A stretch of 64,000 nt of DNA from Leucoraja ocellata (lineage: Eukaryota). The translations under genes were made by a program, and so were the position numbers. The notes beneath the pieces were generated by a model. It saw nothing but the letters and a program-made list of their open reading frames with translations, had not been told where the DNA came from and did not search any database. Below, piece after piece: positions 20,965 to 56,018 of the stretch. Numbering within the stretch: position 1 is the stretch's first letter; every line of letters starts with the position of its first letter. Location: the NCBI GenBank assembly GCA_036785375.1, contig JAWMAR010000788.1, positions 434,001 to 498,000 of the forward strand. The letters are read 5' to 3'.

Positions 20965-21578
20965 AGAAGGTTGGCCCACATGGGTTAAAGCAGTCCCCAG
21001 AAGTTTACAATAGGGAGGGATAGGGGTCAGAGAGGGATAGGGGTCAGAGAGGGATAGGGGGCAGAGAGTGAGTGTCCCCTCCCCACTGTGCTTGTCCGCG
21101 CCCGCGCTGCAATAACGACCGCCACCACCATGTTGTAGAACGTCAAGGAGCCCAGCGGAGTGTGCAGCACGACTTGAGCACGTGTTCAACGGCATCAATC
21201 CACAGCCCGGGGTGGGGGGGGGGAGGGGGGGGGGGGGTGGGGCTGGTCCATGTTTCTCACAGCTCGTGGAAAACAGTGAGGCTGAGCGTTGAAAATTCTG
21301 AGCAGCTTGCCGCGAGGAGCAGAGGCATTGTGACGTCACCCAGCTCGCTTCAGCACGTTAGATTTAAAAAAATGTCAGATTGGTGAACAATTTTAGTGAA
21401 AAACTCAGGAAGTAATTAATCAAATTTTCAGATGAGGCGATTTTTGAAACCACGAGGTAAATCTCCACCGGAATATGTAAAAATTTCACCCTCACCGCGT
21501 CGGGTTTTGGAGGAGATGTGAATCAAAGAAAAAGCTCAAGCAAGCAAACACAAGATCAAGATCTATAATAATATAGAT
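20965..21578 (+). mobile_element. Probable non-autonomous Helentron/HINE-like element
   Basis: CpG-rich block in an AT-rich intron; 5' hairpin TTGGCCCACATGGGTTAA; 17-bp unit x3; 3' end GGTTTTGGAGGAGAT...TATAATAATATAGAT, recalled as typical of DINE-1/HINE-type ends. Confidence 0.45.
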
Positions 21579-22969
21579 ACACACACACACCGAACAAAAC
21601 TAAGCAGAGGGTGGTAATTTATTTAAGTGCTTTATCTACGCTGCCAAATGCGACACCAAATATCAAAAGATGCAATCACCTCCATCCCACCTACATCAAT
21701 TTCCTCTTTACATTAGCAGACCATGTTAAAATATTTGGGGAAAGCATTTTTGACCATGAATACTTGTTACAATAGATAAGTATAAAACAGGTACAATAGC
21801 CAATCCTGAGCTTATTGCAATTACTTTCAATTTCCAAGAACATGCATGGATGAAAAATATTTCCAGATGGTAAATACCATCTTGTGATGTATATTCTTAA
21901 GTTCAAAGCAACAATTTACAGCTTTCTCTTACAAATTTAACCAAGTATCTTATTTGAACATACTTCTATGAAGCTTAATGAGAAACATATTGGACAACGC
22001 TCAAGGGTTGTGTTAGAAAATATGGCAAAAGATTAATCAAAGATTCAGCTTTTAAATGCAGGGTGCAAGGGAAGTAACTGGTTTAGGAAGGACGTCTGGA
22101 TATTAAGCCTCTGACAACTTGGAAGCCAAAGGGAATGGAAAAGCAGCCAAATTTAAGGAACAGAGATGTTAAACATAGTTTTGGTAGTTAACTCAAAGCA
22201 GACTGTCATTTTACAACAGACCATGGATGCAGTTTCTCATATTAATCACCTTTTCACTAAATAAATAAATATTAACAACTCTTTAATGGCTGAGATTTTC
22301 ACAGGCATCTTGCTTGATGAACTAGCAAAATCTGAAGTATTCCATTAGTCTGTGACTTGTTCAGATTATAGGATCATGACCAACTTCCATTTTGTGGAAG
22401 CGAAAAGTGAATACACAATTTCTATATTACGCCATGACAATACTTCAAGGATACTTGATGAGGTACTTTAGGACACCATGAAACTAACCCAAGAGGTGTC
22501 ATATAAATGCAAACCTGTTTTTATTTAAATATATTTTGACAACACAAAGGTCTAAATTTTCAAAAAATGTTGTTTTCAACCTCGGGCCTCTTTCTTCTAC
22601 AAATGGATGGGGGAAATGTAACAAGTGTATCAGGAAATGGTGAAGTGGAGCCAGGGTGTTGATGTCCAATGAGAGGGGGAAAAAGAATCAGGCAAGAATA
22701 AAATAAGATATTGAGGAAAAGAGCAAAATAATATACAGCTGGAAACCTTTGGTACACAAAACACCCAGTCAATGTCTATATTCCTTCTTAAACACTCTAT
22801 ATTCAGGATAATGGCTTCATTGAACTTCCAGATTGAAAAGATAATTACAAATGAGAAATTTATATTGTCCACGTTAAGACCTACATGGTTCTAATATAGG
22901 AACATCTGGATTGTCCAAAATGCAATATCAACATGATTGTATGCAGCCTCTGCTGGCAATAAGATTCTG

Positions 22970-23215
22970 ACAGACCTGGACAGACTTTAAGATGCAATCC
23001 CTGGTAGAGATGTGTCGGATCAGGTGCATTTATTTAAAGATGAGGGTAATTATTTCAAATCAGAATTGGAGGAAGAAGAATTGCTTTGGCAGGTTTGCAA
23101 ATTAGGGGAATTCTTTATCTAAGAGCTGTAGGTGCGGATTCATTATATATATTCAAGACCAGTAACAGGCTTATGTGAACATGAAGGAAAAAAGGAGTGA
23201 TGGCCAAACGGCAGA
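22970..23215 (+). mobile_element. Old CR1 fragment
   Basis: Degenerate CR1 ORF2 end (GGGAATTCTTTATCTAAGAGCTGTAGGTGC...ATTCAAGAC). Confidence 0.45.
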
Positions 23216-24559
23216 TTGTCTGTAATTAATACTTTAAAGTATACTCGTCGTTTTGTGACAAATAACAAAATATTTAATATCAGAAGCCGATTAAGAGAGA
23301 AAATAGTCAACAGGCCGAGAGGTTTAAAGAGGGAACTTCAGTGTGTGGCCCTTTGGAAGCTGAAAGCACAGACAATAATGGAGAACGGTCTAGTTGAAGG
23401 AATTTGGGGAAAGTAAATATACTGGAGCACTGCAAAATCAGAGATCAAGGATTAGGGAGATACAAAGCTATTGCTTTTATTGCCATAATCAAAAGGCAGT
23501 GAACTGAGTTAACAGATGGGCAAGAAAGATGGAACAAGACTGCGTGGGAATAGTCAAATCACATGGTAACAAAAAATTATTGGAGGGTTTTGCTAACAAG
23601 CAGAGATAGACTTACTCTGGCAAAGTTCCCAAATTTAAACAGAAGTCGAGCTGGATGCTTTTCTTAGTCAAATATGACACTATGATTATGAATGATCTGG
23701 TTCAGTTACAGGAAGGTAAATGGAAGCAGTAGCTAGGCTTATTTGAATGGAGGGAATTGCGGCTCATTTAAAACTCATGTCAAACAAAGCATTGCAACTT
23801 AAGTCAGTGGAAGGTCAAAAATGGTGAAGTGGCATTTCGACTATTCTTGCCATTCCTAAGTTGTCTTTCTTCACAGGAAATTCATACATACCCATCATAA
23901 ATTGGGATTAAGATGAGTTGAAATGAGCTGTCTGTTTCTGACTTGTTTTCTTGGGTGAAATTCAATCATTGTTCTAATGCCTAAATCTAATCTTCCATTT
24001 GTTTTTTTTATTGAATGCGCTCAAATGGTAGAATCTTGGAAAGATATGCGAGCTAAATAATAAATTCTACAAGAAACAGTCAATAAGAGTGAAATCATGA
24101 AGGTGAAAAGTGAATGTCACACCATATGGTGTTTGATGGTCAGCAGCGACTCCATATACCGAAAGGCCTATATCCTTGCTGTATCTCCCTGTAAATCCAT
24201 GACCATGCAAACAAAGCCTACAAAAAATAAGCAACGTTAAAGTGTCGATTTTTAATTAAATGACAGTATTTCCCTACGTATTATAGGGACGGGTGTGTAA
24301 GGCATTGAGATTTTGGATAGCAATCAGTCTTGAACTTTCATTAATAAACCTGAGGTGCTTATTTATGAGGTCCATTATTTTCTTGCCATTGCTTTCTAAT
24401 TTCAATTATCTTTTATGATAAGACCGGACATACTTAAATCTAGCTCAAGTACAATACCAATGCTAACTGGCATCCTTTCCACTTCCAAACCACTGCTCTA
24501 ATCATTTAGAACAAACTGCACACTAATAGGGTTGCATCAGTCTCCACTATTGTTTCTGT

Positions 24560-28500: not shown

Positions 28501-28839
28501 CAATCAATAATTAAGGACATTTCTATTTCCAAAGCAACATTTCTTGGTCTGATTTTGTTTCAGGTAACTACATGCATATTACTAGTAACACTACTACTAC
28601 TACTAGTGTCTGTTTGAATTAGCCAAGCTAATTGTACAGATTGTTTAAACTACTATTTATTATCTTCTTGCAAAAATGTACTCTTAAAAAAATAAATAAC
28701 GCTTGAACATGCCTCAGTTTTAAGTAATTTTAAATTGCACGTGTCTGCACTCAAGCCACAAATTTAGCATTGATGGTATCTTCCAGGAACATGGCAAATG
28801 TCCAACCATTCCCTGCAAACCTGTACTGTCCCTGCCTGC

Positions 28840-30217
28840 TGCAGTCTCCACTATTGTCCCTCTACCCAAAAAGACAAGGATTACTGGTCTTATTGACCAT
28901 AAGCCTGTCGCACTGACCTCTGCAGTCATGAAGATCCTTGAAAGACCTGTGCTGACCAAGCTGCAAAATATCACAAACACCCTGCTGGGCCCTCTGCAGT
29001 TTGCATACCGGGCCAATAGATCAGTGGATGATGCAGTCAACCTAGGTCTGCACTTCATCCTCCAGCACCTAGACCACCAGGGATTTTGTTTGTTGATTTT
29101 AACCCTGCATTCAACACCATTTTGCCAGAGCTACTACACTCTAAACTCTCCACGTTGACTATGCCTGAACCCCTCTGTCAGTAGATCACCAACTTCCTGT
29201 CAGACAGAAAGCAGCATGTGAGGCTGAGAAAGCACATCTTGGACCCGCAGACCACAAGGCTGCGTACTCTCTCCTCTCCTCTACACCAACGACTGCACCT
29301 CCACAGACTCCTCTGTCAAGCTCCTCCAGTTTGCGGACGACACAACCCTGATTGGACTGATCCAGGCGGGGGAGGAATCTGTTTACAGACAGGAAGTGAC
29401 ACAGCTGGCGTCCTGGTGCCTTTGTAATAACCTGGAGCTCAATGCTCTTAAGACAGTGGAATTGATAGACTTTAGGAGAGTTCCCCCTCCCCTCCCTCAC
29501 CATCAACAACATCACAGTCACATCTGTGGAGTCTTTTAAGTTCCTTGGAACCATCATCTCCAAGGACCTGAAATAGGGGGCCGCAATCGACTCCACATAT
29601 TAAAAAGGCCCAACAGAGGTACTTCCCGTGGCAGCTGAGGAAACACAATCTGCCACAGGCAATGATGGTCCAATTCTATACTGCCATCATAGAGTCTGTC
29701 CTCACCTTCTCCATCATGGTCTGGTTTGGCTCAGCCACCAAGCACGACATCCGAAGGCTGCAGTGAATCGTCTGATCAGCTGAGAAGGTTGTTGGCTGCA
29801 ACCTTCCCTCTCCCCCTCCCCCCCCCCCCCTCCATTGATGAACTGTACACTGCAAGGGCCAGGAAGCGAGCGGGTAAGATCATCTCTGACCCCTCTCACC
29901 CGGGCCACTAACTCTTTGAAGCATTTCCCTCTGGAAGGCGACACCGGACTGTCAAAGCCACCACAGCCAGGCATAAAAACTTTTTTTCCCCACGAGTAGT
30001 AGCTCTACTCAATAGCCAAAAGTCTGTAACCTCATTTTGCTCTGTTATTTTATTTCATTCACATGTTTAAACCGTAATGTTTTATTATTAATGTTTAATG
30101 TTTTATGTGTCATTCTTAATTGTCACTGTGTGTCGTGTTGTTACTTGCGAGGGGAGCACCAAGGCAAATTCATTGTATGTGAATACTTGGCCAATAAACT
30201 TATCCATTCATTCATTC
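28840..30217 (+). mobile_element. Rex1/Babar-type non-LTR retrotransposon, 5'-truncated and frameshifted
   Basis: STIVPLPKK...PVALTSAVMKILER, LQFAYRANRSVDDAV, LQFADDTTLIGLI RT motifs; AATAAA plus (TTCA)n tail. Confidence 0.88.
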
Positions 30218-32470
30218 AAACAAAAACTAGGTTGACACTTTCATATAATGCTTTGAGCATGATGGAGTGTCAGAGATCCCGTAAATTAATAGATGATTGA
30301 TGCAGAAACATTAATTTGACGGTTCTTCAAGAACTGCAGTGGTCCTGCTTCACCTCACTGTTTCTTGTGGAGCCCAGTTTATTTATGTCTGCTTACACAA
30401 CAACATTCACTTTGTAATGCCCTGTAATCTTGGGTGTATTCCATACAGTCTAATGGCTACTGGGAAGGGACCTCTTCTTTCAGGTACACAAAAATATCTT
30501 GTGAATCATTAAGCAGCTTTTCAAAAGTGAAATGGAACTGTTAAGCACAGGGGTGATTACCAAGTCGAAATACCAAGATTAATGGTTTAATGTTTAAGAT
30601 GCAAGCAGTACAAATGCTTACCATAATGTTATACACGCACAGTCCCACGAGTTATGAATTGCTAACTGGAGTCATTTGTGTCACATTTAAAATCCCAAAA
30701 CAGTTTTCTCAGAATTTTCTTGAGGTTTCTGCTGATGTTTACCACTAACATTTCTCAGCTGCAGCAAACACAACCCACACTCTACCTTCCAAATATTTTC
30801 CCCACTATAATGTATTTTCTTAAAACACCATCACACTATTCGGATGGAATAACTGCTTGAAATGAAATGACTCAATTTGCAGACAAGGGCAACAGGCTGA
30901 GATGAGTAAACAGCATTGTGTACAAGAGTGGATAGCTTGTTAGGATCATTAAAATCAAGTTGAAGATATATTGAAATTAAAAAGATAACGGGCTTTCTGA
31001 TTGCATGTGGTCATGTTAATTATTTATGTCTTGTGATTTTCATTCTCATGTACTGGATCTGCTGTATATTTTCACCAGAGCTTTGTGGGAAAAAATCAGT
31101 AGGAATAGAATATTTATGAAAGTTATGGCAGTAGTTTATCATGTGATTTTTGATGGGACATCTGGTTTAAATTGATCATTTTTGATGTTTTGTCAACTTA
31201 CCTGTGTTGGTGGTCACCAAAAACAATGAAGTATATTGCAGGACATAGAAATGTGCAAGATAATTCAGGGACCTATGTGGACCTGTACAGTCTACAACTC
31301 AACCCAGCAAGCAAACACATTCTTGTTTGTAAACTTGTTTTATTTGAGAAATAATGAAAATAGAAAACTATACAAAGTAAAAAAAATACATATAATTTAA
31401 CCCTAAATATAGAAAGTCAACATGCATTGGATACATATTAAACGAGAAAGTAGAAAGAGTAAATAAAATATACCACAAAAGCTGCATTTCTGGTAACAAA
31501 TATCCAGTTAATAGTTCATTTTGAAAGGGGCACACTTAACAATGCTACAGTCATCAGCTAAGGATGTTGGCGAGTTCACTTAAGCACAACCTCTTCCACC
31601 ACATATTCAGGCAACGATGTTAAACAACTTTAAGTAACTTTCTGGGATCTCTGAGGCTGAGAGGCAGTTAGAAAACATCCATAAATGCATTTACTCAGCA
31701 GTTCACACTTCAAATAAAATCCAGCTTTATTGTAAACCAAGCCAAGTCTCTGTAATAACTGAAAATATTTAAACAATCCTAACTATGGTCCATTTAGTTT
31801 TGAAAGATTGATTATGTACTTTATGCCTCAAATCTAGTTGAAGTAATGATGAGGCACATTTGAGAGAAGGGGAGGATATTTCTAATAGCCTTTGAAAATA
31901 CCAATTCCCATGTACAAACTCGACATTATTGAGATCCACATGAATGCTGTATTGGGAACTCATTGCAGACTCGAGCGACTTGGAAAGGATGTGTTTAAAT
32001 CTCACAAGAAATGGTTTGCAGCCATGCCAATTCCAAAGCCCATTGTCACTATGTTCCTGCTTGTACTATCAACAGTTGACAGCAAATAGATTGTGGGATC
32101 ATTTGAATGGACTCTGCCCTTTGCATTCCTTCAAAGGTGACACTTAAATTCTTTGGGAGCAAAAATAAACTATGGAATATTAAACGCTTGGATTCCAAGC
32201 ACAGGCTAACATTCCTAATTTCCCAATAAACTGAATTCCACAATGCAAGAGACTGTGGTGGAACCAAGTCGTGCAACATTATAAGAATAGAAGAGTGGCA
32301 GTTGCCTGGAATGCCTGGGTGGGTAAAGTTTCCTAAATGATACACTAGTTGGCTTTAGGGATGTCATGATTAAGGAAAGAATGTGGTCTAATATCTAATG
32401 CTTACCAATACTATCGACATTCTTATGTCAGAGTCCAGCATGACCTGTTATGAGAGTACAGGCAAATCTA

Positions 32471-32696
32471 AGGTAGACACAAAACGCTGGAGTAACTCAG
32501 AGGGACAGCCAGCATCTCTGGAGAGAAGGAATAGGTGACGTTTCGGGTAGAGACCCTTCTTCAGACGGAGATTGAGAAGGGCCTCGACTCGAAACTTCAC
32601 CCATTCCTTCTCTCCAGAGATGCTGCCTGTCCTGTTGAGTTACTCCAGCATTTTGTGTCTACCTTCGAATTAAACCAGCATCTGCAGTTCTTTCCT
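32471..32696. mobile_element. Penelope-derived fold-back element with an intact minus-strand hammerhead core
   Basis: About 95-bp inverted arms; minus strand GT-CTGAAGA-A-GGGTCTCTACCC-GAAAC-GTC-ACC at 32534-32566. Confidence 0.8.
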
Positions 32697-32949
32697 AAGT
32701 CGAATCCAATTTGCTGTAGCCTCAAGAACACACACCATTCAGTGCAATGGTGCAATTTGCTCGCATGTATCCATCATTTGTCGCATGCAATGCTGATTTA
32801 GGTTTTTCTCCTGTTGTGAACTGGATAAAAATTTCTGGAAGTGACTTCCAATTTTCGGAATGATATACAAGACCATTTCAGCCAATTGAATTGATGCTGG
32901 CTCAGAGTAACCAATTGCTCCTGTACCTACTTTCTCCATATTCTCATCA

Positions 32950-33300
32950 ACCCACCTACCCATTTGGGGCAATCTGTAGCAGTCAATTAACCTACCAACT
33001 GTGGGAGGGAGCTGAATCACCTGGGGAAACCACGGTCATAGGTGTAATATGCAACTGCCAAACAGACAGCGCTGAAGATCAGGACTAAATCCAGATCAAT
33101 GGAGTAGAAAGGAACTACAGATGCTGGTATATACTGAAGATCGACACAAAGCGTCAAGTAACTCAGCAGGTCAAGCAGCATTTCTGGAGAAAAAGGATGG
33201 ATGATGTTGGGTCTGAATAAGGGTCCCTACCCAAAGAATCACCCATCCTTTTTCTGCTCCAGCACTTTGTGTCTATCACCAGATCAGTGGTGCTGTGAGG
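32950..33300. mobile_element. Degenerate minus-strand V-SINE interrupted by a Penelope-derived fold-back element (about 33108-33278)
   Basis: SINE stops at ...CCAGATCAATGG and resumes CCAGATCAGTGGTGCTGTGAGGCAAC after the PLE copy. Confidence 0.55.
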
Positions 33301-34036
33301 CAACAGACCTAATCGCAGAGAAGCAGGCTCCAGCAGTTTCCCAAACTATCATTTGGGTTGGTTTCAATATTTATCCAGGCATGTTAGTACAACTTCAAGA
33401 GGGAGGTACAGCAACTGAATAAACATTACACCATTTGGAGCTTATGTCTCCAAAGCATTCATTAAAAATTTAAAGGACAGCACCTCTGTTCAGGAGTGGT
33501 ATGTTCTTAAAATGTTTTAAATACTATAACCGGTAGTGAGATAACACATTTGCCACAGCAAGACCCCAATGGAGTTTAACAGGACTATTATTAACCAAAT
33601 GTGGTACTGTGGCAAATGTCAGTGAAGATGTTCAGATGCTTGGCCAAGGAGTAGTTTGAGTTATATACAACAAAATATAGAAGTTTATAGGAGGATTTTT
33701 ATTATTTAAAAGGCATCAGGGTCTTGAATGCATGCCCGTTGATAGTGAACACAATCAAGAATGGCTCAAGAAATCAGAATGCGAGTTTAAATACCTCAAA
33801 GCTGTCCAGCTCGGGAATACTTGAGTTAGTAGGCTATTAGTCATGTATGTGTTCAAAAAGAAGAATTCAAAAAGGTGTCTATCAACTGGGAGTCAAAGGT
33901 AGGTCACCAACAGGAGTAACAGGCAAAGGGGAATTCTTGTAAGATGAAATTGATTTTGGGTTGACATCGGTTTATAGAAATATGAATGAGCAAGAGCAGT
34001 CAGGATTGCATTATTATCTTTCTTACCTCTGGAATT

Positions 34037-34641
34037 CATATCGCGTGTCTGGGTGGAGTTTGCATGTTCTCTGCGACTATGTGGGTTTCTTCCAGGTGCA
34101 TCCATTTCCTCCCACAACCCAAAGACATGGTAGTTGACAGGATAACTTCCCAATGCAATTTAGTGCCAGTGGGTGAGATGCAAGAGTAAAAGGTGAGGAG
34201 AGAAATAGTTGATGAACATATGCGGGGTGGACAGAGAGAAGGGGGGTGGACAGAGAGAAGGGGGTTGGACAGAGAGAAGGGGGTGGACAGAGAGAAGGGG
34301 GGTGGACAGAGAGAAGGGGGGTGGACAGAGAGAAGGGGGGTGGACAGAGAGAAGGGGGGTGGACAGAGAGAAGGGGGGTGGACAGAGAGAAGGGGGGTGG
34401 ACAGAGAGAAGGGGGGTGGACAGAGAGAAGGGGGGTGGACAGAGAGAAGGGGGGTGGACAGAGAGAAGGGGGGTGGACAGAGAGAAGGGGGGTGGACAGA
34501 GAGAAGGGGGGTGGACAGAGAGAAGGGGGGGGGGTGGACAGAGAGAGCAAGAAAAGGGAGAGAAAGAATAAGAGAGTGAATGACGTGGTCTTCACTGGGC
34601 CAAAGGGCCGAGTGCCTGTATTGTATTGTATTGTATTGTAT
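34037..34641 (+). mobile_element. Old V-SINE with an internal minisatellite expansion and a (TTGTA)n tail
   Basis: GTCTGGGTGGAGTTTGCATGTTCTC...TTTCCTCCCACAACCCAAAGAC; tail GGGCCAAAGGGCC...(TTGTA)n. Confidence 0.6.
34224..34545. repeat. 19-bp minisatellite (GGGGGGTGGACAGAGAGAA) x about 17
   Basis: Near-perfect tandem units; explains the 19-aa periodic ORFs on both strands. Confidence 0.97.
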
Positions 34642-34893
34642 AAGAGCATTCTGTTCCTTGGAAAGTATAAGCCAATTATATAGAAATGTAATTGTGGTGT
34701 CTGCTAAAATTGTCATGGGTGCCAATTTCATGAATCTATTTAAGCCAAGTGGCAACCCTTCTGAATGTCTTTGAACAATTCTACTTTGTGGTATCTGGAA
34801 TTAAAATACATAACATGGACATGTATTGCTGCTTCCCATTTTAATGATATATCAGCTCAATTAACTCAACTGATAAGAACACAATGTGGCCAC

Positions 34894-34899
34894 TTTATT
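34894..34899 (-). terminator. Candidate intronic poly(A) signal for a BRD4-short isoform (second AATAAA at 35034-35039)
   Basis: Minus strand GAAATAAAGTGGGCCACATTGTGTTCTT, at the end of a roughly 5 kb repeat-free UTR-like block. Confidence 0.45.
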
Positions 34900-37800
34900 T
34901 CAGCTACAGGAACGAGTCTGTCTACAAACAAAGCAACTCAATAACTGACACTTGGGTAACAGGCAATGTAAGGTGTTCTAAGGTCCAGTTGTTTAACAGC
35001 TGTTTTTACCAGAAATACAGCTTTCAATCTCATTTTATTAACTGCCAATCACTATGCAAGCTCTGCTTTTTTTCTTTCATGCGATCCATATAAAACAGCT
35101 ATTCCAACCAACCAATCGATCCCTGTGACCCCAAAGTCAAAAGTAAAATACATGTGTTTTAAAAGCAAAAAGAATGTTCACCATTACAAAATATGCAAGT
35201 CAAAATAAATAAGATATACAATTGCATACAAAACAACAGTTTTGGAACAGTGAATTTTTTTATCACAATAAATTGGAATACAATGTCCAGTTTCTTTTTC
35301 CCCCCAAAAAATCACATCTGTTTTGGCTTACAAATTTCTTTTTAAAAAAGTAAAAAAACAAAGTAGCCAACGAGTGCTAAAGTTTTGACTGAGGGGCCAG
35401 CAATGCCAGTTCAAAGAGAAGTTAAGGTTTCTGTTCTGCTACTTGGATTCAAAAGGATATTTAACGAAATACCTCGATAACAACATTATTTCTGGTTGAA
35501 TGCAATGTATGAATCCATACAAATATTGATTTTAAACATATGGCTATGATCCACTCTGAAACCCTGCACCAACAACAAAGAAAGAATTGTAATGAGCCAT
35601 TCCCAACCATCACCAATCTGGTCGAGAGACTGGCAAGTGTGACACCATCCTTGATCCCGCGCCAATTTAGATTTAAAGTGATATATTAAACTGTAGTAGC
35701 AAATGCACAATAATTAGGGCCTTTTTCAGAGACCACACAGCACCATTCTCAGAATAATTCAACCCAATCCTAAAAAAGATTGCAGCACCAATTCCTATCC
35801 AAAAGACTAGGATTTTAGTTCCCAAATAGGCAAATTCAATTTGTTACAAAATAAGGCTGCCACATAATTAACTTTTCTCCAAGAAATGCATTTTAGACTT
35901 GCGGCCAAGAGTCTTTCAAAGGCAAATGTCCAGCCCCACAGTCAAAAACACCTCCAGCGTAAGTATACCAACAATAAAACCAACCACACCATCACAGAAT
36001 TTGCCCCGGAAGAAATATCAAGGTTTGAAAACCTGCAGATTAAATCTTTTTATTTATACACTTTTTTCTAAAAAAGCAAGTCTCACCAGTGTTTAAAATC
36101 ATGCACGTCAGATGTGTACAAATTTTAATGCACTTTAAAAAAAAATTAAAGAGTAAAGTTAAAGAATTTCAAAATGTTTAGTCTGAAATATTTATGAGCT
36201 GAAACGATGGCTTCAAATTTACCAACAATTCTGAATGGCTCAAATATCACCTGCCTTTAAAAGCAGAACCAATATTGCCATACTGGTCAATTTCTACCGT
36301 GACAAACAAGTGAGATTGTAACTTCCAATGGTGAAGGCAATCACGATAAATATTCAGGGGAATGAGGTTTGATGCAAGTGCATTAAATCCACCAGACTTG
36401 AAATACTGTCACAAATCTCAATAAATTAAAGAAAGATGCAAAGTCACATACAGTGATACTGTAGATTACTTCACTTCCATAAGAATTTCACTAAAGGTTA
36501 TTGACAGGTAAGAGAAGATGTTTACTTGCATGACAAGGGTGAAACTATTTATCCTTTTGTGTCAGATCACCAAGGATAGCAGTGGTTGGAAGAATTTAAT
36601 ACAAATATAAGTGATGCAATACACACAATGGGTGATAACTCCCCAAATAACTTGAATGTCAATAAAGTCATTTGTTCTTCTTTCACTCAATGACTTGTGC
36701 TCCATTATACATTCTTCTGCCTCGGGAGAATCAAAAGCTGATGGGAGCACCAATAACCTCGGTACAAAAATGCACAAAGAAATCGTTACTGCAGAAAATT
36801 CACCCTCAGTGGGGGTTGCCAGAAATTTCCAAAAGGTGGGAGCTGATCTGAAGAACAAAAATCAAATGCTCTCTGCATCATTGCAACTAAACAGTTTAAA
36901 ACTTAAAATCTTTCTGTGGCATGTAACGCAAGGAAATATTCCAAAGTTCCAAAGCACAATTTGTATCTCTGCAAACCTTGCTGAAAATTCAACAGTAAAA
37001 TATACTGTGATGACAATATGAACTGTAATAGGTGCATATGTTGAGTACAAAGCCGGCCATTTAGATTGAAAATCTGATCACATCTTAATACACCGGCATA
37101 ATACGATGTGTACATGGATGACCAACAATCTGAAGGTGAAACCAATGCTTGGCAGAGTAGAAAGGTTCGAGGTTTGAATATTAATCTGTGATGAATCAGT
37201 GGATTTGAACCAGAATATAACAGCTGGCATTATATCACAAAATTCTCATTGGATTCTCGAGCATTTCTGCAGCACCCGAGTGAAAATTCAAACATCTACA
37301 TGGGAATAGGGTATTGGAGATGAACTCAATCAAGCAATGCTGTGCTGCCTCCAGTAATCAAATTATCTTAACATCCAATATGGATATCTAGGAGCGCACG
37401 TTTGATAACTTTAAGCAGTGCGAGCAACAGCAAAGCACTAAATATGAATTTAATTACAATGTTTCATCCCAAAAATTTGTGACCCATCATATCTAAGAAT
37501 ATGAAATATTACTCTCATTGCCAAATTCAATAACATAGAAATTTGAGGAATCGCACGAAATCCATTTGTCCGAACTCGTCTTCACAGGCATATACCCATC
37601 GTTGGCCGACAATTCACAAATTTTTATACATCTTTGAAAAAATTGTTCTATATACTTCAACTTTTTGTTTTGGTTTAAATCGAGTTTGCTACATCCCAAA
37701 ATGTTAGCTCTCTACAATTAGGCTCTCGCCTTCTCACAAAATAAAGACAGATGGTGCAATATTACCGAGCTGTGCTGTACATTTAAAAATACTTCTCAAT

Positions 37801-39866
37801 ACTTGCAATTATATTTTATTAGATGTATTTACTAAATCCAATGTGTTAACTCTGAAGGAAGCTTTTGGACTTCCCAACTCTGTGCAGTTTACATGCCTCA
37901 ACATCCAAACACATCTACGACCCAGCCCCAATACAAGATTTTATCTTGTACTTATATGATAATCACAGCAGGAACAATGTAATATGCAGCCGGCTGACCT
38001 CTCAGTTCCAAACTCCGCACTCTGTGGCTATTACACAATTCAATCTGTAGAAAGGTACAGCTTACAACTAAAAAAATGTACTCATCTCAAAGATAGCATT
38101 TGTGTAAGAAATCACAATATCCAAAGACCATACATACCGTAACACGCATGAACATTACAAAAATAAAACTGTTGACAATTATCTTGGATATATTAAATAC
38201 ACACAGCAAGAGCACCTTAATCGGTCTGTAACCGAATCTTGAATGACCAACTAATGTACATAATGAAATTACCCACTAAACTGGAGGTGCACATAATGTT
38301 AATTAGAAACCTTATGCTCAATTATTCCTAATCAGAATATCAATTACTCATATTTCAGTGGAAAAAATGCTTTGATTTCATGACATTTGGATGGGGGGGG
38401 GGGGGGGGGGGGGGGGTTAGAGAGAGGGAAAGGAGAGCAACTAAAGAACTCTGAAGGTCAAAATTGAAGAGTTGAAAAATTTGAAATGATCTACAAGACT
38501 AGAAAACAAGCTTCCAGAAAACTTGACCGCACTTTTCCACATTTTTATAATTAGCTAGGTTACGAGTCAGCCCTGTAGACAATTCCTCTGCAGTCAGTGG
38601 AAGCAATCAGGAACAAGGAAGAGGGGGCTTGGGTTAAGGGGTCCTGTCAAATTGCAGCCCTCAAACAATCTTCAGGGCAGAACTCTTGACTGAATGAAAG
38701 CCTGTGTATTAAACATATTTTAATGGTGTGCAACTTAATCACAGGATATGATAGGATTTTAGTTCAAATGTTCAGCAATGACTCGGTTGTGGGTAGTGAC
38801 AATTAACAAGATCTGACGTGGTCATATATGCACAACTGGTCTTTTCTGAAAATTATAGTTAAGTGGAAATATCTAGGTGGTAAATTACAAGACCATCATT
38901 TTAAACTACGTCTGATGCAAGAGAAAATATACAAGCAAAGTTTGAAATAACCGGCTCCAAGATTAAGGGACAGCCTTGCAACTAACTAACCGGGCATTTT
39001 CTACAATAGTAAAAAAAAATAATGGTACATAATTAAATAGCTTACTTGCTTTAAATGCGAAATCTCACTGAGTCGACGGCCATGAAGGTGTAGTAGTAGA
39101 ACGCAGGATGTAGATAATTTTTTGCCAATTGTAACAGTTGTAAAGGATAAAGATCTGTAGCCCACCAGGTTTTTTCTCCTCCTTTTGCTGTCCTCTCACT
39201 GTTTATATAATCAAATTTAGACAATGCACATGTACCTTACTGCGCAAGAGTCCACAGTGCACATGGAGTTGGGGAATATCTTGAAACCTGCCCCTTTCAC
39301 AGCAGATCTGTGTTAGCACCAACCATCTGAAATGCTACACGAACTGCACTCAGGTGAACGCCATGTTTTGTAAACAGCATTCCAATTGCATGTCCTGACC
39401 AGAAATCCTTCATACATTTTTTTTTAGACAGGTGAAGCAAATTTCATTTGCTGGTAGTCAAACGTCGATCTTTCAAAAGACGAGGTAGAAAAAAACCAAT
39501 CCTGCTTTTTCCAAGAGCAAAACAATTTTCTCTGTTGAAGCTGCTTTCTAATTTAAGTGCAACTTAAGCTCTTTTTATGGCTTTCAATGGTCACTGTCAG
39601 CATTATTGCACTTTTTCTATGCAGCTTAAACAGACTAGCGCTAGAATTTCTTCCAGACATGTTGTTCTTTTAACACAAGGAACTACTGGTAAAAAGCTCC
39701 ATTAATCTGGCAAACTGTATGTATTGCAGTGATAATTAGAAGTCACTGGTTGTCGGTTGGAAACTACGATGGGTGGTTTACAGAGAGTACGTGGGGCAGA
39801 GGGGAAACAGACTTTGCCAGCGCCAGGCTAGCAACAGGCTCAATTACTGAAAGAATTGACGCTAAC

Positions 39867-39989
39867 CTGTTTCAGAGTCGTTGCTCTCAGAGGAGCTGGA
39901 GTCACTGCTACTGTCTGACTCAGAAGAACTGCTGCTGCTTCTCATCCTTGATGGGCCTCCCACATCCATGCTTACGTCATGCTTCTCAG
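39867..39989 (-). CDS. BRD4: BRD4 exon 11 equivalent: SEED (Ser/Glu/Asp) tract
   Basis: (A)EKHDVSMDVGGPSRMRSSSSSSESDSSSDSSSSESNDSET; acceptor TACAG|, donor AG|GTTAGC; 123 nt, phase 1 to 1. Confidence 0.93.
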
Positions 39990-41685
39990 CTGTACAAAGA
40001 GAATTATTGTGTAAGTAACAGGACTAAGTAATCTGCTAAACATCAATACTGAAACTAACTGGCTTGTCTACAGTTTTAAGTTGCAATTTACCTTTGGGTT
40101 TTGTTGATTACTATCAATTATAGGCACTACTTAAGACAATGTTGTACATTAATACATTAGGAAGGAGTCACAATTCTTACTTATCTATTCTTAAAATGTT
40201 TTAAACAAGTTCCATAATTGTCATTTCAACTCAATTTGAAGAATCAGCCAAAATGAAGTTAAACTGGTTAACCTCTAAATGTTCAAGTTAATTAGGTGTC
40301 AACCTCAAATTTTACTGCAAACACCGTCAGGGCATCTATGAGAAAATGGACCCAATTCATAACGCTACTTCTCCCCGTCATAACAAGCAAATTAAACATA
40401 TTCTGTCTAAAAGAATGAAACTCTAAAATATTGAACAGATTGATAATTTAATAGTTTTCTCCTAATATAAGTGGATAGAGAATAATAATTAAAGAAACAA
40501 CAGATGTATGACAAGGTCTATCACTCAGGGAAATTCACTTTTTGCAAACAAAAATAAATGCAGGATACACCAGGTTACAAATTTGGGGTCAGTAAAAATA
40601 AAGGACAGCAAAGCAATGAAACCATTCCAAGTAGAGAAGACCTCACACGGAATAGTACTCAGTTCTGCTGTAATGTGATAATTGCGTTCGAGCGAAATCT
40701 TGTGTCACGGAAAATTTAAAACAATGTTGACAATGGAGAACGGAGGGTCTGGGGCAAGAGAGTTTTAGATTCGCAATAACCAAGTTACAAATGAGGGACT
40801 TTTTAATAGTGAAAATATTTTGAATATTGAATATTGAAAATATTAAAGTATCATAGAATGTCAATTGAACGGATTATATTTGTCAATTTCAATGGGTATC
40901 TGAGGTGAAACTTGCAGGCTGTTCTTAAGAGACAACGGCCTCTGATTATTGCAGGGAAGTTATGTGGAAACAACGGACTGTTTTTATTTTCCCCAAAGGG
41001 GCTATCTTTTTCTGCTTGTCAATTTCCAAAGTAACTTTAAGTGGTTCTCTAGCTCCCCATACAACTAATTCAGCCTGTATAAAACTGATAATGTTTCCCA
41101 ACTCATCAATTGTGTTCCATCCACTGAGTATTATGGAAACATGCGTTATAGCAGAACGACCTGCATTCGCATGAAAGTTATTAATTTAAGCACAAGTTCA
41201 AATTCCTGACTTATTGGATTCAATCATTGTAGAGTGCTTTTGAATACTCGTCGTGGACTAATGAGGTCAAGGCTAAACGCTGAGAATTATATTTAGGAAC
41301 AGGCCACATTGCAAATTATTTTCATACTTTGAATCAGAATGATTTTAGCAACGGACTACCCAAGTCCAAGACAGCAACTTATGAGTCTTGATATTCCAGC
41401 AGCTTCATGGGCATTCATTTATGGTAATCAAGTGTGCATGAGGAAGCTATGCTGAATCAACCCGAATGTCTTCACTCAATATAAAGCCACGATGAGCTCC
41501 TACTTTAATGCAGCCATCATACTTCGAGCATTAAGAATTGATTTTGACATACCTTCCCACTTAATTTAGTTTGCTTTACAATTTTGACAAATGCATTTTT
41601 TATTAATTTCACACACATTCCACAATAACTAACAATTGTTACATTAATATGAATAAAGATTAGTCAACTGTTACATTAATATGAA

Positions 41686-41782
41686 TCAGTATGAAGGGTC
41701 TTGACCTGAAACATCACCCATTCCTTCTCTGCAGAGATGCTGTCTGACCCGCTGAGTTAACCCAGCATTTGGTCTACCTTTG
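41686..41782 (+). mobile_element. Penelope-derived short element (degenerate hammerhead)
   Basis: GAAGGGTCTTGACCTGAAACATCACCCATTCCTTCTCTGCAGAGATGCTG. Confidence 0.7.
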
Positions 41783-42364
41783 AATCAAGATTAAGAGAGC
41801 AGGAGAGCTCCCAGTCCCTCCAACAAGTTCATATTATTGCTTAATAGAATTAGTTTATTATTTTATTTACACCAGCTCGTAAACCTAATCCATGAAAATA
41901 ATTTGGAAGGGGATTCAAATCGAAGCTGTGCACTCGATATACAAGGATATCCAAGTCCCTTGGACTGCTTTAAAAATTCAGCATTTCTGATTTTTCTACC
42001 AAAGCAGATAATCACACATTTTTATACTTTCTATTCCAACTGCCAAATTATTTAGCTTGACTCTATCACTTCTTCACATCCTCAGCACAACTCACATCCA
42101 CACTATTTTGTGTCATTAGAAATGTTACATTTTGTCCCATTGGCTAAAGTGTCAATAACAATTGTGGTAAATTTGGGACTAAAGCTCGAATTCCCATGGC
42201 ACTCAATGAAAGGGAACAATTTATACCCACTATGTTTTTTACTGTCCAACTCTCAATTCAAGCTAGTCTATTAGTTCCAATTCCACATGCTCAAACTTTT
42301 TTCGCCAACCCTTTGAGTGGAAATCAGAAGCCTTCCAAAAATGCAAATGTCCAAATCACACTAA

Positions 42365-42681
42365 TCACGGTGGCGCAGCGGTAGAGTTGCTGGCTTACAG
42401 CACTTGCAGCGACGGAGGCCCGGGTTCGATCCCGACTACGGGTGCTGTCTGTAGGAGTTTGTACGTTCTCCCCGTAACTGCGTGGGTTTTCTCCAAGATC
42501 TTTGGTTTCCTGCCACACTCCAAAGACGTACAGGTTTGTAGGTTAATTAGCTGATATAAGTGTAAATTGTCACTAATGTGTGTAGGATAGTGTTAATGTG
42601 CGGGGATTACTGGTCGGTGCGGACTGGGTGGGCTGAAGGGCCCGTTTCCGCGCTGTATCTCTAAACTAAAACTAAACTAAA
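42365..42681 (+). mobile_element. Near full-length tRNA-derived V-SINE
   Basis: A box TGGCGCAGCGG 42371-42381, B box GGTTCGATCCC 42423-42433, V domain, CR1-like tail and (CTAAA)n. Confidence 0.9.
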
Positions 42682-43754
42682 TCTATACTAGATATTTCAA
42701 AACATTGTGGAGTACAGAGGCAAATAAATAAACAATGGATCTTTGCCCCAAACATTATGGAGGGCACTGTGTATATCATCTGTATATGTTATTCATTTTT
42801 GGGCATATTAACTCCATCTGTAAATTTCTATACAAATTTATTTTTATAATATTTAGTATTTAGCATATAACAATATTTTTGGAAGATTTTTCATGTCCAT
42901 GACATCAAAATATTTGCCCCCCCCCCCCCCCAGGAGCTAAACATTTCCGATTCAGATAAAATAATAATAAAATGGCTAGCGATTAATGTATGTGTGAAAA
43001 AACTGATTAAAAAGTCAGGAGTTCACACAGTTGCACCACAGTTTGTGCACATGCTGCGTAGCTGTGACAAAATAATTATTCACCATTTGAAGTTGTCTTT
43101 ATTTAATCTCTTGTTACTTTTCTTGAGATACAGATTTCTATACAAAATTTAAGTAATATATGGGTCTGAAATCAAGAGGCAAGTAGATAATAGGGCAGGT
43201 TAAATGGTGGACATCACTGGAGATAGCCTGGTATTTTGTCCTATAGCTTCCGAGCATAACTTTTCTCAGAGACAGTTCACAAGTCATCAAAAAGATTGAT
43301 TTATTACTTGATGTAACAAGATTCGGGACTTTAATAATTCCGTTACTGCACCCACTCACATTGAAGTAAGTGAACAGTGGAACATGAAGAACATTGTCTC
43401 CGTTTATTGTTATCATGTTATAAACTTAAACAGGTCCTTGAATCTTCGTGAGCACAGTATAAGCATAATTGACTGCTAGATACAAGTAAGGCATAGGGTC
43501 AAATATCAAGTTACAGACAAGGCAATACTCATGAATAACATACTCTGATAAGGTAGTGCTGGCAATTCATGGAATTTACAAATGTGTCCTTCAGCTTAGA
43601 TTAGCTATGAATTATTTGCTCTCAAAGGTAACTTCAGGCAGGGTTCATTAGACGGCAGTTCGTTTCACAAGAGACATAGATTTTCACTGATGAAACATTC
43701 ATAGACGATGATTTGTGCAGGAGCAAATATTAATGAGCATTTACTTTTGTGTAC

Positions 43755-43927
43755 TGACCAGATTGTATACTTTTCTAGGATATGAGAGTGGGAGAAAACC
43801 GAAGATATCGGCGAAAACCCACGCAGGTCACGGGGAGAACATACAAACTCTGTGCAGACAAGCGCCCGTAGTCAGGATCGCACCCGGGTCTCTGGCATTG
43901 TAAGGCACGTAGTCACCGTGTCGCCCA
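43755..43927 (-). mobile_element. V-SINE 5' half
   Basis: GAAAACCCACGCAGGTCACGGGGAGAACATACAAACTC...GGATCGCACCCGGGTCTC (reverse B box). Confidence 0.75.
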
Positions 43928-44299
43928 TGTTCTTCTACTTTTCCCAGTAAGATAATCATACCTGGCCATAATTAGCATCTCAAAAGTAACCTCAAAGCAA
44001 CAATTACACAAATTCTTGACCCACATTGATTCATGCGTTGCAAAAAACACAGCAACTGGACTCCTCCTCTTTATCTATCCATTTCCCATGTCAGACTCTA
44101 CACATCTGTCACAGATGCAGAACATTGCTAAACAATGAAAATGAATGGCTTGAAATGTACAACTTGTTGCAACTATTGTCAACTATCATTTTCAGCAACT
44201 ACTACATCGCAGTGGCCCAAATGAAGCAAGGCAGGTTAATGGTTAAATACAGCTAATCCAGACTTAAAATGCATGCGAGCCAGACTTTGCGTGACTTAT

Positions 44300-44711
44300 T
44301 GTGTAAAAATGAACTGCAGATGCTGGTTTAAACTGAAGATAGACACAAAAAGCTGGAGTAACTCAGCGGGACAGGCAGCATCTCTGGAGAGAAGGAATGG
44401 GTGGCATTTCGGGTTGAGACCATTCTCAGACTGGTTAGGTATAAGGGAAACGAGAGATAGACGGTGATGTGGAGAGATAAAGAACAATTCTGCCATTGTC
44501 AGATTGAGGCTAAATGCTGTTTCCTTTATTATCTTTACTTTTTTGCATATCTTTCATTCATTTTTCTTTATCTCTGCACATCACCGTCTATATCTTTCGT
44601 TTCCCTTATCCCTAACCAGACTGAAGAAGGGTCTCGACCCAAAATGTCACCCATTCCTTCTCTCCAGAGATGCTGCCTGAGCCGCTGAGTTACTCCAGAT
44701 TTTAGTGTCTA
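44300..44711. mobile_element. Penelope-derived fold-back element with about 145-bp inverted arms
   Basis: Arms about 44340-44487 and 44560-44711; CTGAAGAAGGGTCTCGACCC-AAAATGTC (hammerhead with GAAA mutated to AAAA). Confidence 0.82.
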
Positions 44712-45999
44712 CGAGAGACTTATTGACAGGAGAGCAGGGGTCGGGAAGAAAAACGTTCCTCCCAAGGTGAGGATCATGAGTGATTATGACGGAAGACGTT
44801 AAGATAACGAGAACAGATAGCTGTTCATAATGGCAACATTTCTATTTGCAGGGGTTAGGAGAACAATGGAACAAAATGTTAGTTTATGTGCAGATTTGCC
44901 ATAAACCTTCCAAACAGTGTGTGACTTGTGTTTAGTCATGACAAAGTAGAGTTAAGAAGAATATTCAGTAACATGAACAGTGACTGTGCAGATCCCTGGA
45001 TTGGTTTGATCAATTTAAAGATATTAGAGACGAATTTTCAAAGATTATTTATATATTACTTCGGATTTCACCGTAATCAATGGTTATTGATTTAACATAC
45101 ATCATGATACTCAAAATGATGGCATAGTCCCATGTACTTTAAACTATTGCAGTCCTGCTTTCGCTTCCTAGCTATCAAAGATTTTCAAAATCTTTGATGG
45201 TACTTTAAAAAAAATCTTTGATGTTTTATTCTTTGTAGAATTTACCTTCCCTGAGAAATTGCTTGAACAAATTCTCTAGTTAAATCTCCAAATATTGAAA
45301 TGTTCATTTTATCTGACCCTCTGCTAGTAACAATGTATCTAAAGCACTTTCAATCAGCTGGTACTAGACTCACATTAACATGGTCTCTTACCACAATGTT
45401 CCTTCATATAACCAGGCAAAGTCACCCGGGGGACAAGAAATACAGCAACCGGAAAAACATCACTTCCTTACAACATGGTAATCAAGAAAACTTAACCAAA
45501 GAACAAGGAGGGTTATGCTTTCGTACATTAATGTATTTCTTCAATAACTGACTTCTAAAAATATCTGCATCATTCCATTCAATTACATAAAACATGCAAG
45601 ACCATTTTACTTCCAATTAAATACTTGTTAAGTATAACAATAGCTCAAACGTAGCTTTACAGTGTGGTTCCACCCACAACTTCATTGTTTGAGCATAATC
45701 ATGATTTAACACATTTATCAACACTGGACATATTACAGCCAAGCACTATTATAGCTTTCTGGGTTTCAGTAGGAATAACCGTAATGAGACCTAGAGTACA
45801 AGATCATTCCAACTTACCCGCACCACAAAAAACACAGGGCAGAAAGGCAATTGCTGCATCCATATCATCATCCATGCTGATACAAAATTGTTCAGCTCAA
45901 GCATAGAACGAAACCCAAAGGAAAACCGTTTCATTTTTTTGGGAGGCCAGGATTTATTGTCCATCCCAAAATGCCTTTGAAAATGAGGTGGTGAACTGA

Positions 46000-50629: not shown

Positions 50630-50749
50630 CTTTTATGCCTGGTTTCTTCCCAGAGCTCAGCTGGCCGCTAACGTCATGTAACCTGGTATCCAGCTCACTC
50701 TTCGAGTCTAGCTGGAGGTCATCGTTCGATTTCCCTGGGACTTTTTTCA
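50630..50749 (-). CDS. BRD4: Extra BRD4 exon encoding a BRD2/BRD3-type post-ET coiled-coil segment (probable cassette exon)
   Basis: Acceptor TTTGCAG|, donor AAG|GTTGGT, 120 nt, phase 1 to 1, no stops: (V)[39 protein letters not shown]; resembles BRD3 [31 protein letters not shown] (from memory). Confidence 0.88.
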
Positions 50750-52895: not shown

Positions 52896-53129
52896 CTGAA
52901 CCTAAATTGGGCAAGGGTTGGTCTTGTGAAATATTTATTCTCAGTATCACAGCATTTTGATGTATAATGTGAGCCAGCCAGAATACTGGGGCGAAGTCTA
53001 AGAGATTAGGTAATCTCAAATACCTTGATACTCAAATAAAACCAAGTCAATCTATGCAATGTGTTTGACCCACATACGAGTTCCTGACAATGTATCATTC
53101 CTATCATCGAGATCGGCTATCACCACCAG

Positions 53130-53520
53130 TTTGAGATTCTCCCATGATGAAACATGCCCTTCCATCTGGGTCAAGAACCCTCAGGATTTTACATTGCAAT
53201 CAAGTCTCACTCTTCTAAACTCCAGCAGATGCAAGCCAAGCCTATCCAACCTCATTTTAAATATTTGTCTCATAAACCTCTCTAAGCTGCTTAACATTCT
53301 CAATTTCATACGTTTACTAATGCTGTATGTGTGCTCCAGATGTAGTCCAATAGCCAATGTAACTGAAGCATGAACTTTCTACTTGTGTATTCAATAACCC
53401 TCGCAATAAGATTGTTAGCTTTTCTAATCACTGTGTGCTGGCATACTAACCTTTTGAAAAATAATGCACGAGTTCACCCCGATGCCTCTGCATCCTTAAG
53501 TTTCACAGAATATGATTTCC
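53130..53520 (-). mobile_element. Old CR1 ORF2 fragment
   Basis: CCCTCAGGATTTTACATTGCAATCAAGTCTCACTCTTCTAAACTCCAGC reverse-strand CR1 signature. Confidence 0.55.
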
Positions 53521-55968
53521 TATTTTCACTTTACAAAAACATGACTGAACTTATCACTACAAAACGTACTCATACTTTATATGCTATAAACTATTGAGAT
53601 CCTGGTCATTAGATCGCTCTTTATAAAGTCCTTGACCGTGACGATTCACTCATCTTCCCAAGGGCCCAACAAGGTGTCGGGACCTCCAAATCTGGACTCT
53701 ATTTTAAACACCTCTACTGACAGCTGTACTTTTAGACATCTTGGCATCATGCTCCATAACTCTCCTCCTCGATAAATGTCCCGTAAGTACCTTAGACACT
53801 GTTTTTGGTCACTACCATTGATATGGCCTGTGACACCATTAAAAGGACACAAACATTACTCTTAAGTATCCTGGTACATTTGGCTACAGTAAAGGCACGT
53901 TTTATTTGTGTCTTAGTCAGCTAATAGTAGTGACAAAATGTGTTGGCAACATGGGTAGATTTGCAATAGCATCTGTCCCCACAATAGTGAAGGTCAGAAT
54001 ATCATGGCATATAACCATCTCCAATGACAATCTGCAAATAAAAATATCCAAGGACATGTTTTTGTTAGCATCTTGGACAAAGAGTAAATTATACTCTGGT
54101 TTATTTTATTTTGATATGGTGGGATTGTATCATGAGACAAAATGAATTTGTACCGTGTCAGCTCCTTAGAATCAAAAGTAAATAAAAATAACCTAAGTAT
54201 AGCATTAGTAATCTTAAGAAACGTGTGGATAACTCACTGGAGGATGCAAGAGCACTTGGCCCCCCCAGTGAATTATCCATGCATTGAGTTATATTGGAAT
54301 TAGGGAACATTATTTGGATGTAATTTCTCTGTATTCATGGGTATGCTGTATTTGATTAGGCAAGTTTAATGTTGGTCCTGGGTAGCTAACACACCAAGCT
54401 TCCATTTGAGAAGCACCAAATAAGAGAAGTGAATGGTAGTTTAAAATGTGTAAATCTTAAATTTACAGTCAAGTGTACCAGGAATATTTCAAAAGGGAAA
54501 TACGAAAGAAATGTGGCTTTGGGCCAATAATCTTCAAATGTTCCAGAATTTGAGGTTTATTGCTAATTGACAACATATTGTATTGTGAACAACTGACTGA
54601 TGGTCCATTTGGCCGTGTAAATTGTCTTCCTGTAGTCACTTTTTGGATACGAGAGGAAGCTTCAAATTAACTTTTTTGTGCCATAATTATTTCCTCTGCA
54701 TGAAACATGGATCCGAAGTCAGCGGGAAAATATTGCAGCAAAATGCAACAATTCAGAAGCCAAACAAACCACTACATAAAAATAACTCAAATACAGAACA
54801 GGTTGAACCATGAGATCCATGGAAATTGGTTGGTGTTTAATTTTACATTTGCTGCCTTCTGTAAAATCAGCAAATTCCATCTCCAAACCTGGTGAGTGAT
54901 GCCATCAGACTGTTAATTCATGAGGTAAATCATGTTCCAAACTAAATAGATACCAAAGCACTCCACTATCTAACAAGCAAGCAAGGAGGTGAACAGTTAA
55001 CTGGCCCTGATTGATTACAAGTCCTTTGGACTCAATCCCCTATCCCTGTGAAGGAATGTAGGTGGAAGGGGAGGGAGCGGGAAAAATTAAATAGGTGCAT
55101 CCAGGTGGGCCACAGGGGAAGGGGAGTGAAGGTTTGGGTAAGAGAGCGGGTTTCGTAGTTGCATAAAATCAGAGAATTCAAATGTTCATACCGTTGGTAT
55201 ATTCTGCTTGGGTGGCTTATAACCCAACAGTACGAACATTGAAATCTCCGATTTTAGGCAAGTACAACCCCCCCCCCCATCTCCATTCTCCCCACCCCCT
55301 TCATTCCTTTCAGCTTCACAATTGCAATGTTTCAATCCTTTGTGTCTTTTTTTTACAATAAACGTGACTCGACTTGAATTTCCACAAATTAAACCCAACC
55401 TGAAGCTTGGCCCTGAAGTAAACCTGGCATTTCTTTTCTTCCCGTCTTATAATGCCCATCAAGATTACCATCACAACTGTCATTTTAGCGTTCTTGACTT
55501 TGAGTCCCCAACCCAAACAATTACATTCCCATGCTGCACCTCTATCATGCCATGTAGTGCAACTCTCCTAGAGGACATCAGCCAGACACTCCTCTCCCTC
55601 CTTCAAGATGTTTCTTCTTTGCTCCTCTAACTGACCCTTATAAGATGACTTCAGTCAGACTTCGTTAATTAACAAGAGAAGATGAGGAAAAATAAATAAA
55701 TCACGCCTTAATAATGGGGATCTGGAATTCACTGCCTGACCAGGGTGGTGTAGGGAAGCAGCAACTCATATTTTATTTAAAAAGATGAGCAACTGATAAG
55801 ATTTAACCTCCAAGACTACATAAAGAAAGAGTGGGATTAATCTAATAAACAGTTTTACCTTTAACTTTAATAGATCATCTAATACTTGGTACACATTCTA
55901 CAGCTCTGACACTTGGCCTTACTGCAGTTAACGTACTTTAGGGATTTATACGCTACACAATTTTGATC

Positions 55969-56018
55969 ATTCAAATCAGAAACAATTTAGTTTATTCAAA
56001 TCAGAAACAATTTAGTTT
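55969..56018. repeat. Perfect 25-bp tandem duplication ATTCAAATCAGAAACAATTTAGTTT x2
   Basis: Seen directly. Confidence 0.9.

Follow-up and report, generated by a model that had tools for sequence, protein, structure and literature searches.

The 64,000-nucleotide (nt) stretch of Leucoraja ocellata DNA analyzed here (GCA_036785375.1, contig JAWMAR010000788.1, positions 434,001 to 498,000; hereafter the window) carries the 3' two-thirds of one BET gene on its minus strand. At the end of one exon of this gene, the SEED exon, lies an 8-nt element, CAG/GTTAG (39862-39869; the slash marks the exon-intron boundary), which serves as the splice donor of the long form and, when read through, supplies a Gly codon and a TAG stop for a short form. 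We consider it likely that this element is a two-way switch and that it represents an ancestral arrangement, a composite terminal exon with its stop inside the donor, that was later replaced in mammals. All positions are those of the window, and gene features and signals lie on the minus strand unless stated otherwise.

The gene is BRD4, as a preliminary description of this DNA had called it, judging from its ET domain (Pfam PF17035, E=1.1e-29), a C-terminal P-TEFb-binding motif at 7681-7616 (PF17105, E=6.8e-12), and its clustering with gecko, mole-rat, and teleost BRD4 (support of 0.935 over 111 columns, in a rough tree with artefacts elsewhere). The SEED exon (39867-39989; 123 nt, phase 1-1) is common to the long and short forms and is spliced at both ends in RNA. 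It ends GAA ACA G/GT TAG, with the TAG at 39864-39862, and read-through adds one residue, Gly, to give a protein ending in ...NDSETG; both points had been described previously and were verified in the sequence. RNA came from 4 of at least 24 matching runs, representing four organisms (A, C, D, and F) and four studies, all of them relatives of the window species. In all four runs, loose ends at position 39867 matched 19924-19939 exactly, i.e., the exon starting at 19939, indicating that the site is a real and used donor; 17 spliced reads and a set of read-through contigs document its two uses. The donor matches seven of nine consensus positions, within the range of six to eight for the six other donors of the gene, and is thus not exceptionally weak. 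No joint from 39867 into the downstream intron was present in the four runs, so there is no sign in them of a mammalian-type separate final exon with its own acceptor. A hairpin that hid the donor in one fold was rejected, as 14.7% of shuffled sequences also paired the donor and 0 of 14 loci showed the hairpin.

In the proposed scheme, use of the donor by U1, which is borne out by the spliced RNA, removes the 19.9-kb intron (39866-19940) and gives BRD4-long. Where the donor is left unused, as occurs in relatives, the same letters would read Gly-stop, with several kilobases of the 5' intron staying in the RNA. One or more poly(A) signals within the intron would then direct cleavage, yielding a composite terminal exon that encodes BRD4-short (...NDSETG), which is predicted to retain the bromodomains, the ET domain, and the SEED run and to lack the Pro/Gln tail and the P-TEFb-binding motif. 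The U at position +3, which departs from the donor consensus, would both weaken the donor and create the stop, and the A at +4 and G at +5 would keep the donor usable and pairing. The balance between forms would presumably be set by competition of U1 with 3'-end factors, and the short RNA would be translated.

Unspliced RNA across the donor was observed directly. Alignments covered 34645-41680 at 85% likeness, i.e., 225 nt past 34870; organism F was represented by the sole raw poly(A) run (X22, of which 6% was read), and organisms A, C, and D were represented by contig sets, which hold the spliced join from 39867 to 19939 and hence contain RNA. In organism A, a 2158-nt contig (37741-39896) crosses the donor unspliced at a depth of 13.9, versus 103.6 for the exon (13%). 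In organism D, a contig spanning 38756-39896 does the same (6.65 versus 81.4, or 8%), and a second contig covers 34859-36051 at a depth of 9.54. Organism C contributes at least eight pieces within 34780-39667 (depth, 4.7 to 8.3, versus 102 for the exon), none of those listed crossing the donor. The upstream intron (40050-41680) was nearly bare, with one 262-nt piece at a depth of 3 (organism A) and short repeat-like matches. The share of read-through varied among samples (about 13%, 8%, 6%, and under 1%), and the short form is thus minor and variable between samples but supported in relatives. More of the block may be present in the run of organism A, since the listed pieces account for at most 0.245 of its words against an index figure of 0.32.

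Three observations on these alignments stand apart. In each of the four runs, numerous unrelated contigs and reads match a 50-nt stretch (41006-41057), probably part of an old interspersed repeat that self-BLAST missed. A loose end of organism D at 36051, made up of A residues, was rejected as a poly(A) tail because it corresponds to genomic T-rich sequence. A single read pair of X22 near 35.1-35.3 kb was not counted as a 3' end, as it lies next to the block's sole A-rich tract (35078).

The 5' part of the intron, 34870-39861, is the candidate 3' untranslated region (UTR) of the short form, marked by the contigs of organisms A, C, and D. It is better conserved than the upstream intron: in the comparison with organism A, 50 of 2156 positions differ in the block versus 22 of 261 in the upstream intron piece (p=3e-6). 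Within the block, at most 11 differences fall in the first 990 nt after the stop and 39 in the next 1166 nt, and organism C shows 0 differences in 166 nt of the proximal block; from these comparisons, the proximal part (38906-39861) is the most conserved.

Other properties of the block were less telling than the preliminary description had suggested. Its U content, described as high, is only mildly so (34.7%, versus 31.5% in the rest of the intron and 32.5% in the upstream introns), and the highest-U segments among 33 sliding 5-kb windows overlap it. The block is free of repeats, with 0% self-BLAST cover versus 5.8% and 7.4% elsewhere, but equally long gaps occur at 16303-24537 and 52896-58026 (self-BLAST without a repeat library), which makes the repeat argument weak. 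Both features fit a UTR and are too weak, as sequence properties, to define one. The GU-rich tract after 34894 is modest (U+G, 0.58), and no Rfam match was found in 30000-45000. The region that follows the long-form stop (310-7612, minus strand) is likewise repeat-free by self-BLAST and 34% U, resembling the block. A 19-bp tandem repeat (34224-34530; 16.2 copies, 98% matches) lies just downstream of the block, and broken LINE-like (long interspersed nuclear element) reverse-transcriptase fragments, with PF00078 below the cut-off, occur elsewhere in the long intron (28724-29536, plus strand).

Candidate poly(A) signals are distributed along the block. The two AATAAA hexamers named earlier, at 35039-35034 and 34899-34894, are both present, but others in the block had been omitted, namely, AATAAA at 37820 and 36054 and ATTAAA at 38724, 37454, 36600, and 36129; just past the block are ATTAAA at 34845 and AATAAA at 33703. 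Hexamers prove nothing by themselves, since their density is lower in the block (0.8/kb, with none in the first 2 kb) than in the flanking intron (1.1 to 1.5/kb). The AATAAA at 37815-37820 is a candidate proximal signal, as the read-through contig of organism A stops 74 nt after it. The one at 36049-36054, with two TGTA motifs upstream, seems in organism D to be altered and bypassed. Contigs of organisms C and D run past the hexamer at 35034-35039, and a contig of organism D breaks 39 nt after the hexamer at 34894-34899, yet RNA goes on in both organisms. The hexamer at 33698-33703 is a candidate, by sequence, for a more distal end.

To place the element in a wider context, 80 BET loci from metagenome contigs were compared, of which 40 reach the SEED run. 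Twenty-one of the 40 were set aside (1 truncated, 13 with a stop but without G/GT, and 7 with the frame running on, including two intronless long forms, L010 and L016, with GGT at about this codon), leaving 19 hand-picked loci whose SEED run ends at a phase-1 G/GT. An immediate stop was found in 12 of the 19 (11 with CAG/GTTAG and 1 with CAG/GTTAA), or in about 10 of 12 lineages after similar loci were collapsed. As background, a stop arises at the ET-exon donors in 0 of 45 loci (31 different strings by a simple calling rule, with 17 transcript-like contigs left out beforehand) and at the coiled-coil-exon donors in 1 of 18; the enrichment at the SEED donor is significant at the lineage level (Fisher p=3e-8). 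In a BET tree of low resolution and with missing-data artefacts, the stop-bearing loci fall near pancrustaceans (L003, L008, and L038), mites (L004), and molluscs or annelids (L006, L033, L049, L050, L055, and L058), with L069 unplaced. In L008 and L049 the C-terminal motif follows the stop on the same contig, and in L069 the helix preceding that motif does so; in these three loci, the stop must therefore be spliced out for the long form. A candidate post-SEED phase-1 acceptor was found in one of the three (L049, 4.0 kb on). Four further loci (L003, L004, L006, and L050) lack two introns of their relatives and continue from GGT TAG for 526 to 2850 nt of non-coding sequence with no tail exon, looking as short-form mRNAs would; L038, an intron-bearing relative of L003, has an identical end. 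The layout of ET domain, coiled coil, and SEED run in three exons with phase-1 introns is also common to the window gene and the invertebrate loci. The recurrence of the same element at the same codon in protostome-type BET loci agrees with the earlier view that the short/long switch is old and suggests that the arrangement is ancestral to bilaterians, although common descent of the element is our reading of these comparisons.

Protein ends point to the same codon. Among BET proteins gathered by a search with the ET exon, short forms end in ...SE(S/A/T)G in mite, fly, several unnamed sequences, gecko gene models, and an elephant-shark BRDT model, in ...DQG in snail, and in ...TGPA in mammals. 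BRD2 ends in ...DSDSG, as had been stated earlier; this end (...SDSDSG) is in register with the short end, and it looks like a short end fixed after tail loss. BRD3 ends two residues earlier. Of 34 long proteins, which were pattern-picked and include related sequences, 32 have E, G, or D at the codon, as a phase-1 G/NN splice requires, and the other two are out of register. A protein search with the SEED exon, a low-complexity query, gave no match at E<=1, and no named chondrichthyan BRD4 turned up in the protein searches made.

Additional observations concern related genes and models. The elephant-shark BRDT model (P0147), a gecko BRD4 model (P0239), and an unnamed amniote-like sequence (P0017) all end in ...SETG, which suggests that BRDT and the BRD4 of non-mammalian amniotes have the stop-in-donor. 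Where the SEED donor carries no immediate stop, read-through adds G-S-E-E before the stop (L030:11574 and L034:12717) or 3-30 or more residues (the GTAAG group, L066 and L077-L080). Tail-less genes that stop at or just before the codon and have no donor there (L013, L014, L017, L019-L024, L027, L031, and L041, as well as spider and BRD3 proteins) suggest that a short form was fixed repeatedly.

Several results weigh against the proposed switch or its antiquity. In X22 of organism F, the 17 spliced reads at the donor represent only the long form; depth is zero over 35350-39814, and about 300 letters near 34880-35349 amount to ~0.25% of exon depth, where 8% read-through would give ~9700 letters. 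No poly(A) tail, sharp end, or end cluster was seen in any of the four runs. RNA of organism C passes 34870 by 90 nt, to 34780, and a 995-nt contig of organism D (depth, 7.67) aligns to 34668 and continues beyond. Coverage has holes at 36052-38755 in organism D and below 37741 in organism A. The TAG itself was not read in organisms A, C, and D, for which 40 of 243 differences are listed, and all of the RNA derives from relatives and none from the window's species. Among the invertebrate loci, 7 of the 19 (two groups) have no immediate stop at the donor (two GTAGT and five GTAAG), the 13 loci set aside stop without G/GT, and L069 has no AATAAA or ATTAAA after the stop. Six teleost brd4 models also have no immediate stop and run 4-29 residues past the Gly.

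Accounts given in the preliminary description can be adjusted to these data. Its 3' end at ~34870 is not borne out, as no tail or end cluster was seen there and contigs of organisms C and D run past. RNA coverage from 39867 to ~34870 holds insofar as organisms A and D cross the donor and organism C covers the block in pieces, but organism F has nearly none and the contigs of A and D leave holes. As to a composite terminal exon with intronic polyadenylation, the used donor and the unspliced read-through RNA are present in relatives, but no polyadenylated end was seen.

The most serious alternative, though an unlikely one, is that the read-through RNA represents nuclear pre-mRNA in which the 19.9-kb intron, lying behind a weak donor, is retained or spliced slowly, the stop only rendering such RNA harmless. 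The missing 3' end is in keeping with it, as are the RNAs of organisms C and D that run past 34870 at similar depth and the near absence of the short form from the only library recorded as poly(A) (for the three contig runs, no library type is on record). However, organism D shows greater depth distally (9.54) than beside the donor (6.65), the block is better conserved than the upstream intron, the same stop is followed by a terminal UTR in intronless invertebrate contigs, and the short forms of fly and mammals are established proteins (PMC4197945 and PMC6300607).

It is less probable still that cleavage does take place at an intronic poly(A) site but most of the product is then destroyed via PAXT/exosome, a fate directed by an unused 5' splice site together with a poly(A) junction, so that this RNA tunes BRD4-long and makes little protein. 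Such a decay code has been described (bioRxiv 10.1101/2024.07.23.604837, available in part), and the product is of low abundance in all four runs, but decay needs neither a stop at the codon of known short isoforms nor a conserved multikilobase UTR, and a non-consensus donor should recruit U1 less well.

Equally improbable, in our view, is a real short form with convergent GTTAG, reached by any lineage selected for a tail-less BET protein: repeated origin would be eased because TAG is the stop that preserves A+4 and G+5 of the donor, and it would accord with the absence of the element from 2 of about 12 invertebrate groups, teleost brd4 models, and mammals, with the 13 loci that stop without G/GT, and with a poorly resolved tree showing missing-data artefacts from a sample without amphioxus, echinoderm, or cyclostome long-form loci, but the element occurs in pancrustacean-like, chelicerate-like, and spiralian-like loci and in the window, gecko models and an elephant-shark BRDT model end in G, the three-exon layout with phase-1 introns is shared too, and few losses are simpler than many gains.

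Returning to the switch reading, we give somewhat better than even chances to a fuller history. The 8-nt CAG/GTTAG donor and stop would have been hard-wired in the bilaterian ancestor and would persist in arthropods, spiralians, cartilaginous fish, and amniotes other than mammals. In mammals, a new acceptor exon, probably cut from the old intronic UTR, would have re-created the short form and brought back its Gly (G-P-A), and BRD2 would be a short form frozen after genome duplication. If true, protostomes and vertebrates would share, down to the nucleotide, one choice in RNA processing, a rare case that would offer a simple origin for tail-less BRD2 and mark mammalian exon 12 as derived. The ratio of long to short BRD4 decides whether the chromatin reader bears a tail that recruits P-TEFb, and a +3 U-to-A change alone should abolish the stop and strengthen the donor, shifting that ratio. 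Moreover, a nucleotide-level element at the same codon makes a shared origin of the fly and mammalian short forms directly testable.

The remainder of the gene conforms to a BRD4 that is placed outside the bony-vertebrate BRD4s in the same rough tree, as fits a cartilaginous fish, with the end of its ET domain and the following exon resembling gecko BRD4. The region encoding the two N-terminal bromodomains lies upstream of the window, which covers the post-BD2 exon (59261-59044), the ET-domain exon (57275-57561), and a 120-nt, in-frame cassette exon (50630-50749) encoding the ancestral BET coiled coil, which is included or skipped before the SEED exon. On the far side of the 19.9-kb intron, the splice partner of the donor (19878-19939) is the first exon specific to the long form, its junction reading E-T-E-V-P-P-K; Pro/Gln-rich exons follow, up to the last coding exon with the P-TEFb-binding motif (7613-7681). 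A 162-base N gap (8945-9106) falls within a poly-Gln coding exon of the long form. The cassette exon shares 51% identity with sawshark BRD3; a contig of organism A has it joined to the SEED exon, and most reads of organism F skip it. This exon is missing from the tetrapod and teleost BRD4 proteins compared, and the window BRD4 thus seems to retain a coiled-coil exon that bony-vertebrate BRD4 lost. The SEED exon also retains an invertebrate- and BRD3-like D-V-G-G-P-S-R, where tetrapod BRD4 has diverged.

A literature search that reached few subscription papers turned up no description of a stop within this donor, nor any of its conservation or of BRD4-short in chondrichthyans. A short brd4 was cloned from Xenopus (PMC11266789), and a review of BET gene structure, in its available text, gives short and long accessions and no shared junction (PMC5133849); PMC8629005 concerns brd2. 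Database models with the Gly end exist (gecko, fly, and snail), and the isoforms are therefore partly annotated, while the stop-in-donor pattern itself seems unremarked. The switch as such is known; what appears to be new is the recurrence of CAG/GTTAG at the same codon across protostome BET genes.

Among known systems, BRD4-S of human and mouse departs from its long isoform where the window gene does, at the same codon following the SEED run (P0010 and P0036 versus P0013). It also lacks the C-terminal domain, and splicing together with the choice of 3' end determines its balance with the long form (PMC6300607, PMC10476966); CPSF6 shifts this balance (PMC10476966), and shifts in the ratio affect leukaemia cell survival (PMC6300607). 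However, human BRD4-S arises via a separate final exon, as the preliminary description had it and as is stated in PMC6300607 and PMC10897194. That form is defined by the splice acceptor of final exon 12 (PMC6300607), which adds GPA (PMC10897194, PMC8579545), whereas the window gene has its stop inside the donor, no extra exon, and a terminal Gly. Drosophila fs(1)h is similar in that one BET gene gives two forms, FSH-L being a C-terminal extension of FSH-S (PMC4053998, PMC4197945), and dipteran proteins diverge at the same codon (SEAG-stop in P0097, SEAE in P0080). In contrast to the window gene, the fly forms are described in the available text as alternative splicing with no junction given, and they were compared here as proteins rather than as locus DNA. 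Tail-less BRD2 and BRD3 end at or near the short-form end, but they have no long form at this junction, and the window gene, which bears the C-terminal motif, clusters with BRD4. Composite-terminal isoforms, which make up 61.6% of 2675 assembled human isoforms (PMC5928244), share the overall design: in cases of intronic polyadenylation such as sFlt1 and CstF-77, a donor is left unused and the 5' intron is kept up to an intronic site. The window gene differs from this class in that its cleavage site is putative, its read-through adds one residue only, and the position of its stop is the same across protostomes and a vertebrate.

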